Program-made: the position numbers and the translations under genes
Shown here: positions 654 to 62,487 of the stretch, piece by piece
How the letters are laid out: each line of letters starts with the position of its first letter
Numbering within the stretch: the first letter of the stretch is position 1
Notes under the pieces: model-generated
What the model was told of the DNA's origin: nothing
Databases searched by the model: none
The model's input: the letters and a program-made list of their open reading frames with translations, nothing else
Assembly (NCBI GenBank): GCA_964508895.1
Contig: CAZDWF010000003.1
Location: forward strand, 1 to 63,217
Direction: 5' to 3'
Length of the DNA: 63,217 nucleotides
From: an uncultured Bacteroidales bacterium
GTDB lineage: Bacteria; Bacteroidota; Bacteroidia; Bacteroidales; B18-G4

Positions 654-681
654 GCAGGTCGCAAGGGGCAAGTCGCAAGGG
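654..681. repeat. Heptanucleotide tandem array, 4 units (GCAGGTC GCAAGGG GCAAGTC GCAAGGG)
   Basis: Read directly; strict 7-nt register; intergenic. Confidence 0.8.
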
Positions 682-818
682 AAGAAATCTGATATTTCGC
701 AGCTGAAACTCAGTGTCTATGTGGTTTTCTTAAGACTAAGCATAAAGTTGCACAAAGAATATTACAAAGGAACACCTGTAAAATAATAATATTAGTATAA
801 AAGTTTGCTCAGCGTGTT

Positions 819-860
819 CTTGCGACTTACTCCTTGCGTCTTGCGACTTGTGACTTGAAC
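819..860. repeat. Heptanucleotide tandem array, 6 units (CTTGCGA CTTACTC CTTGCGT CTTGCGA CTTGTGA CTTGAAC), inverted relative to 654-681
   Basis: Read directly; it is the reverse-complement flavour of the GCAAGTC family and ends 14 nt before the ATG at 875. Confidence 0.8.
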
Positions 861-1884: not shown

Positions 1885-3921
1885 ATGAATATCAGATTTA
1901 TTGCTACAGCAGCTTTACTAACACTTATAAAATGCACCCTTGCCCAACAAAAACCTCCAGTAATAGAGGATGATTACGCCAATACCCAGGCAGGAATTCC
2001 TATTGCAGTGAATGTTCTGGAAAATGATTATGGAATGCATGGTCATAAGATAAAGATCTATCATGCCATTAACGGACAGGTTACACATAATGATAGCACT
2101 ATCTTCTATAACCCACCTATATCATTTTCAGGAGAAAAAATGATCAAATATATACTCATAGATGAAACTAATGGTTTATTTTCTGAACCAGGACAACTGT
2201 GGGTTAATGTCAGCAATCAAAATTCTCAATATATCAATGCCAATAATATAGATGCAAGAATAAACTCCAGTGGAGTTCATTTTTACATTCCTGATGGATC
2301 AGGGAACTCTCACTTTTATGTTCCCAAAAATACTATAAAGTCAACCTTTTTATCTTTAAGTTTATGGATTGGGGGTCTGGATTCTAATAATATTTTACAT
2401 TTTGCTGGTGATAAATACCAGAATTATGGCATGGATTTCTTTCCAGGACCAATCTCAGATATCTACGACTCTTCATACCAGAAGAAATGGAATAAAGTAT
2501 GGAAAATGAGTACATCAGACATAGAGTACCATAAAAACAATTGGTGGAAAGATGATTATACACCTACAACTACTATTGCGACATGGCCAACTCATAGTGA
2601 TTTGCACAAAAGATCCATAGATTTAATTGCACCCTTTGAAGATGTTAACTCCAATGGAATCTACGATCCAATGGAAGGGGATTATCCTGTTATAAAAGGT
2701 GATCAGGCCATTTTCTTTATTTTAAATGATGATAAGCAGAGTCATACTGGTTCCTATGGGAATAAACTTGGAGTTGAAGTGCATGGAATAGCTTATGCGT
2801 ATGATTGTCCTTGTGACTCATCATTACAAAACACTATTTTTTTTCATTATATAATTATAAATAAATCTAATATAACCTATGATAATACTTTTATCGGGTT
2901 TTTTGCAGATATGAATATTGGTTTCTTTATGGACGACTATATGCAAACCGATGTAAAAAGAAACAGTTTAATAGGGTATAATGGCAATAATATTGATGGA
3001 ATGGGTTATATAGGAAATGAATATTTAGAGCATCCACCGGCACAATCACTTACAATTTTAAAAGGGCCATTAAATGAAGCAGATGGTATTGATAACCCAG
3101 GATCAGACATTCTGGGGAATCCATTATGTGATCATAGTTATAACGGACAATATTTTGGTGATGGTATTATTGACAATGAATGCATGGGTATTTCATATTC
3201 ATCCATCTATACAACCATATCAGGCCCAATGTCTGATCCATATACAGCCTGGGATTATTATAGAAATATGCAGGGTAAGTGGAAAGATCATTCTGTTTTT
3301 CAATATGGTGGTGATGGCTACAACCTTTCTTCTAATGTTGGACCTGATTGCAGATATCTATATCCTGGAGCCAGTGACTCAGTAAATTATGGTACAAATG
3401 GACAATCACCTATTGGTGGTTATAACACGAATGGCTTTTTCTGGACTGAAGCCAGTGAAGATAATTACCCGGGTGATCGCAGAGGATCTGTTTCAATGGG
3501 ACCAATAAACTTTAAACCTGGAGATATTAAGGAAATTGATCTTGCACTGGTTTTTGGAATTGACTATCAGAGGACAGGAAATCTGGCAGCTCTTGATATC
3601 CTGGACGATAGAATTGATAAAATTATAGAAAATTTCCAAAAGGATTCCATATCCTGTGAACCGATATCTTTTAACAATGAAGTTAAAACTAAAAAAAACA
3701 ATATTAAAATCTGGTCAACTGAAAACACAGTCCATATTACAAATCCGGAAAATGCTAAAGGCAAGATTCGTATTTACAACCTTTATGGACAAAAAATACT
3801 GGAAACTAGACTTAATGGTAATATTAATCAGGTAATCAGTTTTGATAAGCCCACTGGACATTATATAGTAAAGATTACTGGAGAGGAGTTTGTGGTGAGT
3901 ACAATAGTTCGTAGTTCGTAG
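1885..3921 (+). CDS. Secreted T9SS cargo protein of unknown function
   Basis: Signal peptide; N-terminal cadherin/VCBS-like motif (PPVIEDDYANTQAGIPIAVNVLENDY); C-terminal T9SS type A sorting domain (IRIYNLYGQKILE ... GHYIVKITGEEF). Confidence 0.7.
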   Translation: MNIRFIATAALLTLIKCTLAQQKPPVIEDDYANTQAGIPIAVNVLENDYGMHGHKIKIYHAINGQVTHNDSTIFYNPPISFSGEKMIKYILIDETNGLFSEPGQLWVNVSNQNSQYINANNIDARINSSGVHFYIPDGSGNSHFYVPKNTIKSTFLSLSLWIGGLDSNNILHFAGDKYQNYGMDFFPGPISDIYDSSYQKKWNKVWKMSTSDIEYHKNNWWKDDYTPTTTIATWPTHSDLHKRSIDLIAPFEDVNSNGIYDPMEGDYPVIKGDQAIFFILNDDKQSHTGSYGNKLGVEVHGIAYAYDCPCDSSLQNTIFFHYIIINKSNITYDNTFIGFFADMNIGFFMDDYMQTDVKRNSLIGYNGNNIDGMGYIGNEYLEHPPAQSLTILKGPLNEADGIDNPGSDILGNPLCDHSYNGQYFGDGIIDNECMGISYSSIYTTISGPMSDPYTAWDYYRNMQGKWKDHSVFQYGGDGYNLSSNVGPDCRYLYPGASDSVNYGTNGQSPIGGYNTNGFFWTEASEDNYPGDRRGSVSMGPINFKPGDIKEIDLALVFGIDYQRTGNLAALDILDDRIDKIIENFQKDSISCEPISFNNEVKTKKNNIKIWSTENTVHITNPENAKGKIRIYNLYGQKILETRLNGNINQVISFDKPTGHYIVKITGEEFVVSTIVRSS

Positions 3922-4001
3922 TTGGTAGTTAGTAGTTAGTAGTTAGTAGTTGGTAGTTAGTAGTTAGTAGTTAGTAGTTAGTAGTTGGTAGTTTGTAGAT
4001 A
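3904..4001. repeat. Heptanucleotide tandem array, 14 units, consensus GTAGTTR
   Basis: Read directly. The array starts inside the last codons of the 1885-3921 CDS and contains its TAG stop (3919-3921). Confidence 0.9.
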
Positions 4002-56333: not shown

Positions 56334-56360
56334 AACTCTGTTATCTTAATTTTGGGTGTG

Positions 56361-56391
56361 CAAAAGTAAAGAAAATTTTTTTCTAAACAAA
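56361..56391 (-). promoter_or_regulatory. Bacteroidota promoter of rpmH (-33 TTTG, -7 TACTTTTG)
   Basis: On the minus strand, TACTTTTG (plus coordinates 56361-56368) matches TAnnTTTG. A TTTG at 56388-56391 lies 19 nt upstream. The box ends 27 nt before the rpmH ATG. Confidence 0.5.
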
Positions 56392-56416
56392 TTATTTTTG
56401 TAAATATTTTAGGATT

Positions 56417-56479
56417 CAAGGAGCAAGGAGCAAGTCGCAAGGAGCAAGTCGCAAGTCGCAAGGGACAAGGAGCAAGGAG
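56417..56479. repeat. Heptanucleotide tandem array, 9 units (CAAGGAG / CAAGTCG / CAAGGGA)
   Basis: Read directly. 56431-56455 is the exact reverse complement of 57043-57067. Confidence 0.9.
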
Positions 56480-56516
56480 AGCCTAGTGTGTAGAAAGTTA
56501 GAGCATTGCATATTTT

Positions 56517-56879
56517 TCAACTTCTATTTTCAAGATAACCTAAAAAGCCATACAGCACCTTACCTAATTCAAGTAGTTGATCATGAAGATCTTTATATAG
56601 TTGTAAATCAAGCAATGATTTTGTTTCGTATAAAGTTTCAAGATGATCGATAGTTTCATCTTTACTGGCAATCGCATATATAATAAACCTTATATAATCC
56701 TTTGTATATTTTTTCCTTCCATATCCTTCGACAATATTTGATCTAATTGATTTTGATGATCTTCTTATTTGACTTCCTGTTTCATATAATTCTATACTGG
56801 GCAAATGAAGAGACATATTATGTATTTCAATACTGACTTCCTTTGCTTTTTTCCAAACTTGCAAATCTTTGTAACTCAT
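56517..56879 (-). CDS. Four-helix-bundle protein (23S rRNA intervening-sequence protein / Avd family)
   Basis: 120 aa with [17 protein letters not shown] ... [21 protein letters not shown] ... [16 protein letters not shown] pattern typical of this family. Confidence 0.8.
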
Positions 56880-56913
56880 GATTTCATCTATTTGATACTT
56901 AATACCAAATCAT

Positions 56914-56947
56914 AAAAAAAGTCCCGCTAAAAACGGGACATTTTATT
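56914..56947 (-). terminator. Rho-independent terminator downstream of pepD (potentially bidirectional)
   Basis: GTCCCG-CTAAAAA-CGGGAC hairpin flanked by a 7-A run on the plus strand, which gives a T run after the stem on the minus strand. Confidence 0.6.
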
Positions 56948-57042
56948 AATCAACTTCTCAATGCATTGATAACGAGCCGATTAGTGATCTTTTCGGGATT
57001 TTAAAAGTGTCAATAAACACCACATCCCAGCCCAAAGCACCC

Positions 57043-57070
57043 CTTGCGACTTGCTCCTTGCGACTTGCAT
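57043..57070. repeat. Heptanucleotide tandem array, 4 units (CTTGCGA CTTGCTC CTTGCGA CTTGCAT), inverted partner of 56417-56479
   Basis: Read directly; abuts the pepD stop codon (57071-57073). Confidence 0.85.
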
Positions 57071-58581: not shown

Positions 58582-58618
58582 AATAAAGTTGCTGATTGAG
58601 CAAGGGGAAGATGATAAA

Positions 58619-58723
58619 AGTCGCCAGTCGCCAGTCGCCAGTCGCCAGTTTCCAGTCGCAAGTTTCCAGTCGCAAGTCGCAAGTCGCCAGATGCCAGATG
58701 CCAGATACCGGATGCAAGATACA
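58619..58723. repeat. Composite heptanucleotide array, 15 units: AGTCGCC x4, AGTTTCC, AGTCGCA, AGTTTCC, AGTCGCA x2, AGTCGCC, AGATGCC x2, AGATACC, GGATGCA, AGATACA
   Basis: Read directly; single 7-nt register throughout. Lies between the MFS terminator and the pepD promoter. Confidence 0.9.
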
Positions 58724-58743
58724 TTTACTTGTCGTTAGATAAT

Positions 58744-58769
58744 AAAAAAGCCCCACGTTAATGTGAGGC
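58744..58769 (-). terminator. Rho-independent terminator after the MFS transporter gene
   Basis: Stem GCCCCAC / GTGAGGC (one mismatch) with a 6-nt loop; a 6-A run on the plus strand gives a T run after the stem on the minus strand. Confidence 0.5.
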
Positions 58770-58775
58770 TTTGTG

Positions 58776-58810
58776 TCTATAATCTATAATCTATAATCTA
58801 GAATCTATTC
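58776..58810. repeat. Heptanucleotide tandem array, 5 units (TCTATAA x3, TCTAGAA, TCTATTC)
   Basis: Read directly; contains the stop codon of the MFS gene (58805-58807). Confidence 0.8.
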
Positions 58811-60478
58811 AAGATTAGCTTTTTCTATAGCTTCTCTGTCTTTTTGTGATTCCGCTCCTGAAGGAAGTTCCAGTCCGTATCCTTGTTTCTTATCTGCTCT
58901 TCTAAGCATAAATGCCAGGAATAAAGCAACCACACCCAAGCCTACAAGCATTAAAATAGGATTTGTATAATCAAATGCCGGAATTTCATGTGTTAGCTGT
59001 TGCATTTCCTGCAGTTTGGCACTTATTTCAACTCTTGACAATCCTTGCGCTTCAAGTGAAGCTCTTGTTGTTTCAAGCTTATCAACTACAATTGGGTTAG
59101 ACTTATCAAGTACCCAACCAATTCCTTTAAAGAAAATGTTCAATCCCCAGTTCTGGATCGTAAACATGGCAGCATACGCTGTTCCCAGTCTGTTTTCTGC
59201 AACAATCTTAGCAACTGATGGCCACATAGCTGCAGGAACAAGTGAAAACGCAATTCCAAGTGCCAGGAGCCCAAAATATCCAAGGACTACATTATCTAAT
59301 AATGATAAGGTTAAGTGAGCAAATATCAGAAGCAATGCCCCCAGTATCATCAAAGAAGCTGCTTTACCTTTTGTATCAACAAGTTTCCCGAATATTGGGG
59401 TGAAAAGGATGGAACCCAGAGGTATTAAACTTGCTGTTTTAGGACCGTTTTGCAACCATAATTCCAGTGTATCAGATAATGAATAAATAAACAGTACAAA
59501 GAGCAATAGGATAATAACTAATGATATCCTCTTTCCTGATTTATTTTTTATAAAAGTGGGGACCAAAGTAACAGCTAATGCAAAGATGAATAATCCAATG
59601 AATATCGAAGCATTTCCCAAAGTAGTACTTCCAAATAATACTACATCTGCACTTGCTGGCAGTTCATAAGTGAATCCAAATTTATTGATCAATAAATCAG
59701 GAGCATATTGCATAAATGGGAAAACTGCAGAGTAAAATGTAACACAGAGTAATGCAATAAGAATAAATGAACGATTTGTAACAAGCTTAATAAGATCTGA
59801 GAATCTAAAGGGTTCCTCATCTTCATCTCCTGCTTGTCCTTTCATCTGCCTGTCAAGCTTAATATCAAACATAATATATATAAGGAACATGATAAGACCA
59901 ATTCCAATTAGTGTAGCTGCAAAGTTCACAGCCGGAGAAACGATACCACCACCAATATCAATTGATAAAGCTTGTCCTAAGGTAGATCCAAGTCTTCCAA
60001 ATCCCATATTGATTGCCATAGCCAATGCCAGTTCATAACCTTTAAACCACTTCACAATGGTTCTCATAGCAATAACACAAACTATCTCTAATCCTGATCC
60101 GAACAATAAACGGCCAATCATCATTACCCACATTTGTGAATTGACATCATCAGAAAATATTCCTGCCGCACCCATTGCAGTTAATGATGCTCCAATTACC
60201 GCAAGCAAACCAAACACAATACCAGTTCTTCGTATGCCCCATTTATCGAGGATAATACCACCAATAATTATCATTCCAAATACGTTGGCCCATGTAGTCC
60301 ACTGGATCAATGTACCAAACTGACTGGATGTAATACCCATTTCAGTAATCATCAATGGCTTGATTCCTGAAAAGAAATCCTGGAACCAATAGGTGCCAAA
60401 AGTAAGTCCACTGATAAGAATCAACACAAGCCATCTTGCTGCTGCCGAGTCTTTTAAAGTTCTTTTAATTGTTTCCAT
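58805..60478 (-). CDS. MFS transporter
   Basis: 557 aa, about 12 TM helices with a central charged loop; adjacent to pepD, so a peptide substrate is possible but unproven. Confidence 0.7.
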   Translation of the reverse strand: METIKRTLKDSAAARWLVLILISGLTFGTYWFQDFFSGIKPLMITEMGITSSQFGTLIQWTTWANVFGMIIIGGIILDKWGIRRTGIVFGLLAVIGASLTAMGAAGIFSDDVNSQMWVMMIGRLLFGSGLEIVCVIAMRTIVKWFKGYELALAMAINMGFGRLGSTLGQALSIDIGGGIVSPAVNFAATLIGIGLIMFLIYIMFDIKLDRQMKGQAGDEDEEPFRFSDLIKLVTNRSFILIALLCVTFYSAVFPFMQYAPDLLINKFGFTYELPASADVVLFGSTTLGNASIFIGLFIFALAVTLVPTFIKNKSGKRISLVIILLLFVLFIYSLSDTLELWLQNGPKTASLIPLGSILFTPIFGKLVDTKGKAASLMILGALLLIFAHLTLSLLDNVVLGYFGLLALGIAFSLVPAAMWPSVAKIVAENRLGTAYAAMFTIQNWGLNIFFKGIGWVLDKSNPIVVDKLETTRASLEAQGLSRVEISAKLQEMQQLTHEIPAFDYTNPILMLVGLGVVALFLAFMLRRADKKQGYGLELPSGAESQKDREAIEKANLE

Positions 60479-60533
60479 ATTATTTTTGCTTATTTGTATT
60501 TTGGGATAAGCTGGCTAAAATAGGAAAAATATT

Positions 60534-60645
60534 CAAGATACAAGTAACAAGATTCAAGATACTGGATACCGGATGCCGGATGCCGGATACCTGATGCCGG
60601 ATGATTCTATGAACTAATCCAGAATCTATGATCTATGATCTATAT
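60534..60645. repeat. Composite heptanucleotide array, 16 units: CAAGATA-type x4, CYGGATR-type x6, three degenerate units, TCTATGA-type x3
   Basis: Read directly; one register throughout. The last units contain the rsmG stop codon (60640-60642). Confidence 0.85.
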
Positions 60646-61260
60646 ACTAATATGTACGATTTTCTTCGTTTCAAAAAAGTCTTCTTCAAAATGATCTGAG
60701 ATATTAAAAACTTCAGATCGGTATTTAATGCTTTTAAGTTCATCCTGAAAATCTCCTCCTTTTAAATAAAGAATGCCATTGGAGAGTTCATTTTTTGAAC
60801 GGGGATAGATCTTGTTTTTTATCCAGGATGTAAATACCGGTAAATTTGTTACTGCCCTGCTGACTATAAAATCAAATTTTTGATCCAGGTTTTCAGCTCG
60901 CAAATTTAATGCTCTCACATTTATTAATCCTAACTCTTCTACAAGCTCTTCGACCACATTGATCTTTTTTCCAATTGAATCGATCAGGAGAAATTCAACC
61001 TTCGGGAATAAAATTGCAAGTGGGATTCCGGGAAAGCCTCCTCCTGTTCCTACATCACATATGCTGCTGTTGCTATGAAAGTTGATACTCTTAGCAATAC
61101 TTAAGGAATGTAATACATGGTTCACCTCAAGATTATCTATATCTTTCCTGGAAATCACATTTATCCTGGAATTCCAGTATTCGTATAATTCAGGAAGCAT
61201 ATCAAATTTTTCATACTGCTCATCCTGCAAATCCTCAAAATATTTTCTAACTAACTCCAT
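60640..61260 (-). CDS. rsmG: 16S rRNA (guanine527-N7)-methyltransferase
   Basis: SAM motif DVGTGGGFPGIPLAI; 206 aa. Confidence 0.85.
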   Translation of the reverse strand: MELVRKYFEDLQDEQYEKFDMLPELYEYWNSRINVISRKDIDNLEVNHVLHSLSIAKSINFHSNSSICDVGTGGGFPGIPLAILFPKVEFLLIDSIGKKINVVEELVEELGLINVRALNLRAENLDQKFDFIVSRAVTNLPVFTSWIKNKIYPRSKNELSNGILYLKGGDFQDELKSIKYRSEVFNISDHFEEDFFETKKIVHISI

Positions 61261-62452: not shown

Positions 62453-62487
62453 AATCATCCGGCATCAGGCATCCGATATCCGGCATC
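62453..62487. repeat. Heptanucleotide tandem array, 5 units (AATCATC CGGCATC AGGCATC CGATATC CGGCATC)
   Basis: Read directly. Same flavour and orientation as 1674-1764, inverted relative to 60562-60603. Overlaps the stop codon at 62486-62488. Confidence 0.8.

Follow-up and report, generated by a model that had tools for sequence, protein, structure and literature searches.

We identify here, in 63,217 nt of DNA from an uncultured Bacteroidales bacterium (contig CAZDWF010000003.1; this whole stretch is called the window below), an insertion between the two housekeeping genes pepD and rpmH that carries a gene for a 120-amino-acid (120-aa) four-helix-bundle protein, enclosed by inverted arrays of tandem heptamers. 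The layout of gene and inverted heptamers recurs in at least nine bacterial phyla, and the window unit is best read as a representative of small chromosomal insertion cassettes that form a widespread class, each built from one gene of the PF05635/TIGR02436 family, a G/purine-rich degenerate heptamer array upstream of it, and a complementary, inverted array downstream. Such cassettes are best read in turn as the free-standing counterpart of those intervening sequences (IVSs) of 23S rRNA that bear an open reading frame (ORF), and we consider it probable that the DNA at about 56394-57070 was inserted here and belongs to these free-standing cassettes of IVS type, with heptamer arrays as its arms.

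Two puzzles more than 30 years old, namely the role of the conserved ORF of 23S rRNA IVSs and the abundance of tandem heptamers in some lineages, are set in one frame by this finding: the gene is almost always flanked by heptamer arrays that are inverted and fixed in polarity, and it is an insertion that comes and goes. The protein family, the rRNA IVSs, and heptamer simple sequence repeats (SSRs) are each known, and their class-wide association appears to be unreported; no paper linking the PF05635 family to heptamer arrays was found in the full-text literature, a body of text that leaves most subscription journals outside its coverage.

An insertion between pepD and rpmH

Syntenic pepD-rpmH loci, reached through pepD homologs, present the site in three states:

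L087, L088, and L090 (pepD 71-74% identical): 54-60 nt between the pepD stop and the rpmH start, holding the rpmH promoter but neither arrays nor gene
L086 (pepD 92% identical): 235-nt spacer, nearly all one composite heptamer array, no gene
Window: 737-nt spacer between pepD stop and rpmH start, with arrays and gene

An earlier, first-pass annotation of this DNA had proposed a small insertion cassette and a comparison of this spacer among relatives, and the empty sites of about 60 nt in the more distant relatives, together with the array-only site of a closer one, bear the proposal out. Read from left to right, the L086 array consists of GCAAGGA-type, ACTGGTC/ACTGGCG, and then CTTGAAT-type units, and both array edges are common to L086 and the window. 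A further relative, L102 (pepD 87%), shares the left arm and has a complementary array upstream of pepD as well; L101, in which pepD is truncated and the locus rearranged, was rejected as an informative relative. Array-only versions occur at this pepD-rpmH site and elsewhere in the same genomes.

The layout of the unit, with the flanking genes, is as follows:

58531 to 57071, minus strand: pepD (Peptidase_M20), stop codon TAG at 57073-57071
57042-57070, minus strand: upstream arm, beginning 1 nt past the pepD stop codon
56940-57041, minus strand: unique 5' spacer of the insert, 102 nt
56921-56939, no strand assigned: GC-rich hairpin with T-runs on both strands, resembling a bidirectional intrinsic terminator, inside the repeat-bounded unit
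56880-56920, minus strand: 41-nt leader, possibly the gene's own promoter, as its place in the layout would suggest
56517-56879, minus strand: 120-aa four-helix-bundle gene, PF05635/TIGR02436 (profile hidden Markov models, AlphaFold2, Foldseek)
56480-56516, minus strand: 3' spacer, 37 nt, from stop codon to downstream arm
56417-56479, minus strand: downstream arm, nine heptamers, reading CTCCTTG/CGACTTG on the coding strand, the complement of the upstream units
56334-56416, minus strand: ancestral rpmH promoter/leader, host DNA outside the insert, which aligns with the pepD-rpmH spacer of relatives
56333 to 56184, minus strand: rpmH (Ribosomal_L34), about 80 nt beyond the downstream arm

The 120-aa bundle protein is the only ORF within the repeat-bounded unit, and neither the 3' nor the 5' spacer has a match elsewhere among the sequences compared. 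The unit had at first been described as having the pepD terminator on one side and the rpmH promoter on the other, which needs correction on the terminator side: the hairpin at 56921-56939 lies inside the unit and is missing both from the empty sites and from the array-only L086, and it is therefore part of the insert, not the ancestral pepD terminator.

The arms were first reported as a perfect 25-bp inverted repeat (56431-56455/57043-57067). The perfect repeat is in fact 26 nt, with 56430-56455 the exact reverse complement of 57043-57068, and can be extended to 30 nt at 90% identity (56413-56442/57042-57071). Period-7 arrays were delimited by Tandem Repeats Finder (TRF) at 56417-56479 (9 copies) and 57042-57068 (3.9 copies), and both arms consist of tandem, intergenic 7-nt units of the type described as heptamer SSRs or short tandemly repeated repetitive (STRR) sequences. 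The arm heptamers are GCAAGTC and GCAAGGA, and on the coding strand the upstream arm reads, from 57069 to 57042, GCAAGTC GCAAGGA GCAAGTC GCAAGGGG; its left edge is also found after the pepD stop in L086 and L102. On folding of the unit, as the first-pass annotation had suggested, the arms are predicted to pair (z-score -6.4). The locus was recovered on contigs from several independent sequencing runs, and an assembly artefact is therefore excluded.

The window has 35% G+C and Bacteroidota-type genes. The initial remark that the gene is not in rRNA and has no reverse transcriptase nearby holds: no Rfam family, tRNA, or rRNA was found in the window and no reverse transcriptase near the unit, whose neighbours are pepD, rpmH, YfhO, a major facilitator superfamily (MFS) gene, rsmG, and glycosyltransferases.

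The protein family and its arrays across phyla

The window protein belongs to the PF05635 IVS-protein family, as had been proposed from the sequence, with scores of 91.3 bits against PF05635 (E = 5e-26; cut-off 33.8) and 96.3 bits against TIGR02436 (cut-off 24). Its AlphaFold2 monomer model (predicted local distance difference test, pLDDT, 97) is placed by Foldseek next to 2GSC (Xcc0516; template-modelling score, TM, 0.90) and 2RLD (BT_0352; TM 0.81), stand-alone/IVS members with which sequence and hidden Markov model searches also group it. Across 28 family sequences from several phyla, 31 residues are invariant, and the conserved GxxRxxxSxxxNxxE motif is present in the window protein. A search by tblastn with 120 homologs detected a single four-helix-bundle gene in the window and no paralog there.

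A kinship with Avd, the accessory protein of diversity-generating retroelements, had also been put forward, and it stands for the fold, not for anything closer. The four-helix bundle is common to both (PDB 4DWL, 8UB7; TM about 0.76), but identity is 10%, and Avd is a remote structural relative of the window protein. Avd is a pentameric ring that binds nucleic acid and the reverse transcriptase, whereas neither a reverse transcriptase nor a template/variable repeat pair adjoins the window gene, and a diversity-generating retroelement was rejected on these grounds. Membership of the HEPN group was likewise rejected, as the protein has no Rx4-6H motif and the family is unmentioned in the HEPN survey (PMC3710099). 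Libraries of defence-system and phage proteins gave no match.

The association of gene and arrays was assessed at 160 loci. The genome set took one genome per GTDB species and comprises the best 80 of at least 594 confirmed relatives (594 of the 600 matches listed), at 55-68% identity, from Bacteroidota, Ignavibacteriota, Balneolota, Verrucomicrobiota, Acidobacteriota, Fibrobacterota, and Desulfobacterota; the replication set comprises 80 independent metagenome loci from the Joint Genome Institute (JGI). A flank was called array-bearing when its period-7 score exceeded the 95th percentile of control blocks. Within the genome set, period-7 windows cluster on either side of the ORF, at distances of up to about 200 nt, and are nearly absent beyond. 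Arrays were called in 70/80 upstream flanks, 62/74 downstream flanks, and both flanks of 58/74 loci, compared with 23/93 of the other intergenic segments of the same loci (Fisher test, p = 1e-17 upstream and 1e-14 downstream, values that are optimistic because the loci are not phylogenetically independent). Loci with arrays on both sides thus make up 78%, whereas the intergenic background of 25% would predict about 6%. The metagenome set agrees, with 61/78 upstream and 58/80 downstream flanks array-bearing and 13/486 control blocks.

Orientation and polarity are equally regular. Inverted arms (alignment score of at least 30) were found in 39/71 and 47/76 loci, and direct ones in only 5/71 and 9/76. 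Upstream arrays have G in excess of C on the coding strand in 111 cases versus 15, and downstream arrays C in excess of G in 98 versus 15. The commonest array unit across loci is CTGGATG/CTGGATA; the heptamer varies by locus, yet the arms match, the own partner ranking in the top 5% for 79/144 loci. The gene/inverted-array association, its polarity, and the matching of arms at each locus are therefore general across phyla. The upstream array ends a median of 50 nt before the ATG, and the downstream array starts a median of 11 nt after the stop. As the upstream neighbour is co-oriented with the four-helix-bundle gene in 105/131 loci and the upstream array often starts directly after that neighbour's stop codon, the cassettes usually sit just past the stop codon of a co-oriented gene. 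The insertion context is identical among several Ignavibacteria, Cyclobacteriaceae, and Verrucomicrobia, and such sharing across species indicates that cassettes persist for long periods.

In nine Balneolales-type loci (L013, L018, L023, L039, L043, L048, L063, L085, and L091), a conserved motif of the form TTTGTAAGG...(about 20 nt)...GGTTCATAcaAtT lies about 40-80 nt before the ATG, between the upstream array and the start codon, and it is probably the own promoter of the four-helix-bundle gene there. Three loci depart from the class pattern: L012 has a strong inverted repeat (about 2828-3000 and the downstream flank; score 111) with no obvious heptamers, and L016 and L031 have long direct repeats in place of inverted ones.

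More distant members of the family present the same picture. The window protein itself has no plasmid match, but tblastn with a family consensus detected 45 plasmid records, mostly cyanobacterial, with Riemerella also represented. Fourteen plasmid loci were inspected (Nostoc, Calothrix, Stanieria, Leptolyngbya, Geminocystis, Pseudanabaena, Oscillatoria, Aulosira, and Riemerella), and in nearly all of them G-rich heptamer-like arrays abut the ATG and complementary C-rich arrays abut the stop. The four-helix-bundle gene on a Pseudanabaena galeata plasmid (L186, 1253-1960) is inserted between cas6 and cas4; its long AAAAGCT/AAAAGCC arrays on both sides are direct and not inverted, with AGCTTTT arrays further upstream. 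Family members inside cas operons have also been described by Zhang & Ye (PMC3936711).

An identical protein, WP_010994075, is encoded on Nostoc PCC 7120 plasmids gamma (L184, 1501-1851) and alpha (L185, 1501-1851). The gamma copy follows closely on an annotated ISL3-family transposase gene, and sequence upstream of the alpha copy resembles the 3' end of that ISL3 element, with no transposase gene annotated; both copies retain the downstream CTTCTGC/CCTCTGC array. This suggests that the Nostoc PCC 7120 plasmid copies hitch-hike on an insertion sequence (IS).

Published data on two further bacteria fit the cassette design, a fit unremarked by their authors. The Coxiella burnetii IVS carries three to four GACAGAT repeats, variable in number, before its ORF and within its 28-bp terminal stem, which RNase III cleaves at the first GACAGAT repeat (PMC4990558). 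In Xanthomonas campestris, array #15 (GGGAATC x4) is found 6 nt past bccP and extends over the start of XCC0516 (Rehm 2015, PMC4692102), and XCC0516 is the crystallised family member; 70 of the 186 heptamer arrays of X. campestris are in convergent pairs (PMC4692102). The tie between heptamer arrays and this protein family, which the first-pass annotation drew from one locus, is accordingly carried by the 160 loci, the 14 plasmid loci, and these published cases.

Mechanism and competing explanations

Placing the unit beside the rRNA IVSs gives additional insight into how it might function. ORF-containing IVSs are known from 23S rRNA of Leptospira, Coxiella burnetii, Brucella, and Xanthomonas (Ralph & McClelland 1993; Warrier et al. 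2016, PMC4990558). Their loop protein is of the same family as that of the window (PF05635, 'S23p'), the termini are complementary in both (28-bp stem in Coxiella, 26-nt perfect repeat here), and the ORF lies in the sense orientation of the host transcript in both. The purine-rich tandem GACAGAT units directly before the Coxiella ORF, with their strain-variable copy number, are like the upstream arm. Differences are also apparent: IVSs occupy helix 25 or 45 of 23S rRNA, whereas the window unit lies between pepD and rpmH; cassette arms are long degenerate heptamer arrays, with up to 9 units in the window and more than 20 elsewhere; and a terminator separates the upstream arm from the ORF in the window.

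By this analogy, the arms would be the cis-acting ends of the cassette. Upon read-through from the upstream gene, they could pair as a long duplex in the transcript, which RNase III may cut as demonstrated for rRNA IVSs, and the cut would free the cassette RNA from host messages and so make the insertion tolerable. At the DNA level, repeated and register-tolerant arms could permit gain, loss, and homogenisation through slippage and recombination. The conserved protein would, by homology with Avd and pentameric Xcc0516, be a nucleic-acid-binding ring whose target is probably either the arrays or the RNA transcribed from them. Of the ways in which the cassette could be tolerated, the RNase III stem is the most likely, though it is unproven. 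It is suggested by the IVS precedent, where an element that carries the same ORF together with heptamers is excised by RNase III, and by the shared orientation of cassette and upstream gene; arrays that abut the ORF in many lineages and the predicted pairing of the arms are further points for an RNA mechanism. A DNA-level or protein-binding role is favoured in turn by the array-only site of L086, a gene-less inverted pair at 654-857 of the window, the heptamers that arms have in common with distal arrays of their locus, and the resemblance to the REP-type gene/repeat partnership taken up below.

Several observations weigh against a mobile, RNA-processed cassette. Mismatches between the arms, read on the sense strand, are G·U in 238 cases and A·C in 250 (p = 0.62), and this lack of a G·U preference means that there is no signature of selection for RNA pairing. 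A strong terminator stands between upstream arm and ORF in the window, as does the promoter-like motif between array and ATG in Balneolales, so that the upstream arm is probably off the gene's own mRNA in some lineages. The first-pass alternative, a stem-loop of about 650 nt that works at the RNA level, is not upheld at this locus, given that terminator and the mismatch counts. Recent transposition was considered and rejected, as an identical protein (P0066) is found on 24 contigs in a single context with invariant arrays, and no phage or viral-contig copies were found in those collections; the single context and the lack of phage and viral copies imply mobility that is slow or dependent on host recombination. 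Neither a transposase, an integrase, nor a target-site duplication was found in the unit, and no duplication is recognisable at its junctions in comparison with the empty sites, whose pepD is 26-29% diverged. Distal arrays mostly (24/33) use heptamers other than those of the arms. The phylogenetic dependence among loci, given above with the p values, counts on the same side. Finally, heptamer arrays also bracket ordinary genes of the window. The pepD gene is bracketed by inverted GCAAGTC-family arrays (57043-57068 and 58658-58697, with 81% complementarity between 57043-57068 and 58658-58683), with a polarity opposite to that around the four-helix-bundle gene, and rsmG and a glucosaminidase gene are bracketed together by 35-nt arms at 91% (60572-60606 and 62453-62487).

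With about a dozen other heptamer arrays in its intergenic DNA, these brackets among them, the window by itself could be explained by arrays that litter intergenic DNA, two of one family happening to flank the gene, and the bracket alone is not clearly above chance; its specificity rests on the other genomes. There, the association is replicated in two 80-locus sets and 14 plasmid loci, with inverted orientation and fixed polarity, which contradicts the chance juxtaposition that the first-pass annotation had named as its refuting case and makes coincidence very improbable. It could be speculated instead that the arrays are host regulatory elements that control transcription or translation, for example C-rich tracts of the Rho-utilisation type downstream and tracts of the operator or UP type upstream, and that the protein is an ordinary autoregulated host regulator that is neither selfish nor mobile. 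Polarity fixed relative to the coding strand, a C-rich downstream array that abuts the stop codon at its median gap of 11 nt, retention of the gene at the same site across species, and strong purifying selection on the protein would all suit such a module. We nonetheless regard it as distinctly unlikely: presence and absence differ at pepD-rpmH among close relatives, copies in cas operons, beside IS elements, and in 23S rRNA are better fitted by an inserting element, and 55-68% protein identity over unrelated phyla suggests horizontal spread.

The main rival to the IVS-type cassette is a partnership akin to that of repetitive extragenic palindromic (REP) sequences, their hairpin-forming doublets (REPINs), and the REP-associated tyrosine transposases (RAYTs), in which a single-copy, vertically persistent gene reportedly has, on either side, inverted copies of the short repeat that is dispersed through the intergenic DNA of its genome, and the repeat sequence and gene co-vary between lineages. 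The window gene is similarly flanked by inverted copies of the dispersed GCAAGTC-family repeat. On this account, a single-copy, vertically kept protein would create, maintain, or disperse arrays in trans throughout the genome, the arrays would act as DNA and not as an RNA stem, and solo arrays would be non-autonomous products. The account would accommodate the dozen or so solo arrays in 63 kb, among them the gene-less inverted pair of the same family, the occurrence of arrays in 7-25% of the other intergenic segments of carrier genomes, and the sharing of heptamers between distal arrays and the arms of their own locus (9/33, versus 1.4% for random loci). It would equally accommodate the absence of a G·U bias in the arms, the persistence of the gene at one site across species, and the presence of the PF05635 family in heptamer-rich lineages (Xanthomonas, Nostoc, Bacteroidota, Beggiatoaceae). 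An unknown repeat-binding protein has moreover been postulated as a mobile agent (MacGregor 2015, PMC4679880). RAYTs, however, are HUH (IS200/IS605-like) transposases with a catalytic motif, whereas no nuclease or recombinase fold or motif is recognisable in the 120-aa helical bundle; REPs are unique palindromes, and cassette arms are tandem heptamers. A single genome holds heptamers of very different sequence, yet the protein hardly varies, which makes sequence-specific recognition unlikely. We therefore see this partnership as a possibility of lesser weight and favour the free-standing IVS-type cassette.

Tandem heptamers of the STRR type are reportedly abundant in cyanobacteria. Related arrays, GGGAATC and GGGGA(C/T)T, have been described in Xanthomonas and Nostoc (Rehm 2015, PMC4692102) and TAACTGA arrays in Beggiatoaceae, cyanobacteria, and Bacteroidota (MacGregor 2015, PMC4679880). 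Like the cassette arms, these SSRs are intergenic and tandem, have a C-N-R-G-like core, often form convergent pairs, and vary strongly between close relatives, but the SSR papers discuss them as SSRs in their own right, as formers of G-quadruplexes, or as sites for regulators, unconnected to PF05635. It is conceivable, if rather doubtful at present, that PF05635 proteins and heptamer arrays are one system throughout bacteria and that the protein lies behind the excess of tandem heptamers. Such a system would explain the STRR arrays of cyanobacteria, the GGGAATC arrays of Xanthomonas, and the TAACTGA arrays of Beggiatoaceae and Bacteroidota; ORF-bearing 23S rRNA IVSs would be copies that landed in rRNA; and the whole would be a REPIN-RAYT analogue built on a non-enzymatic nucleic-acid-binding ring, with strand polarity and the 7-nt period reflecting the ring's engagement of DNA or RNA. 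Cheap experiments are feasible in cultivable carriers, namely Xanthomonas campestris (XCC0516), Nostoc PCC 7120, and Riemerella.

Other arrays and assembly breaks

GCAAGTC-family sites lie at 654, 819, 56417, 57042, and 58660 of the window, and two features outside the unit belong with them:

654-857, plus strand: gene-less inverted pair of the GCAAGTC/GCAAGGG family, 654-681 forward and 819-857 reverse
58615-58720, plus strand: composite array upstream of pepD, with CCAGTCG, CAAGTCG, CCAGATG, and CCGGATG units; partly complements 57043-57068

The two arrays of the gene-less pair lie in a divergent promoter region and are separated by 137 nt of non-coding, unique DNA, and this insert (682-818) has no match elsewhere among the sequences compared. 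The pair folds as a stem (z-score -3.6 for 645-865) and may represent either a cassette in decay or a derivative that is non-autonomous. Solo arrays in general were rejected as foldback pairs, with z-scores of +0.5 at 58610-58815, -1.7 at 60530-60650, and -1.9 for L086; among those tested, foldback is clear only at 645-865.

In the spacer between the MFS gene and pepD, each relative has a heptamer array, every one with a different unit: CTTGTAT in L086 (5867-5947), CTGTAAC in L087 (1-39), GAGTCCA in L088 (5871-5899), AATACTA in L090 (5913-5998), and CCAGTCG in the window (58615-58720). These differing units imply that arrays turn over much faster than the genes that flank them. Elsewhere in the window, a TAGTTAG array of 13 copies (3905-3998) overlaps the 3' end of a 678-aa ORF (1885-3921); its complement, CTAACTA, is near the published TAACTGA unit.

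The association gives annotators a usable rule for a 'hypothetical' gene that is very common, and it accounts for assembly breaks beside four-helix-bundle genes, of which the heptamer arrays are a systematic cause. Short-read contigs very often have their start or end inside the heptamer arrays beside these genes (L001-L005, L095, L099, L100, L102, and many of L006-L085), and in L102 the whole pepD contig both starts and ends in them.

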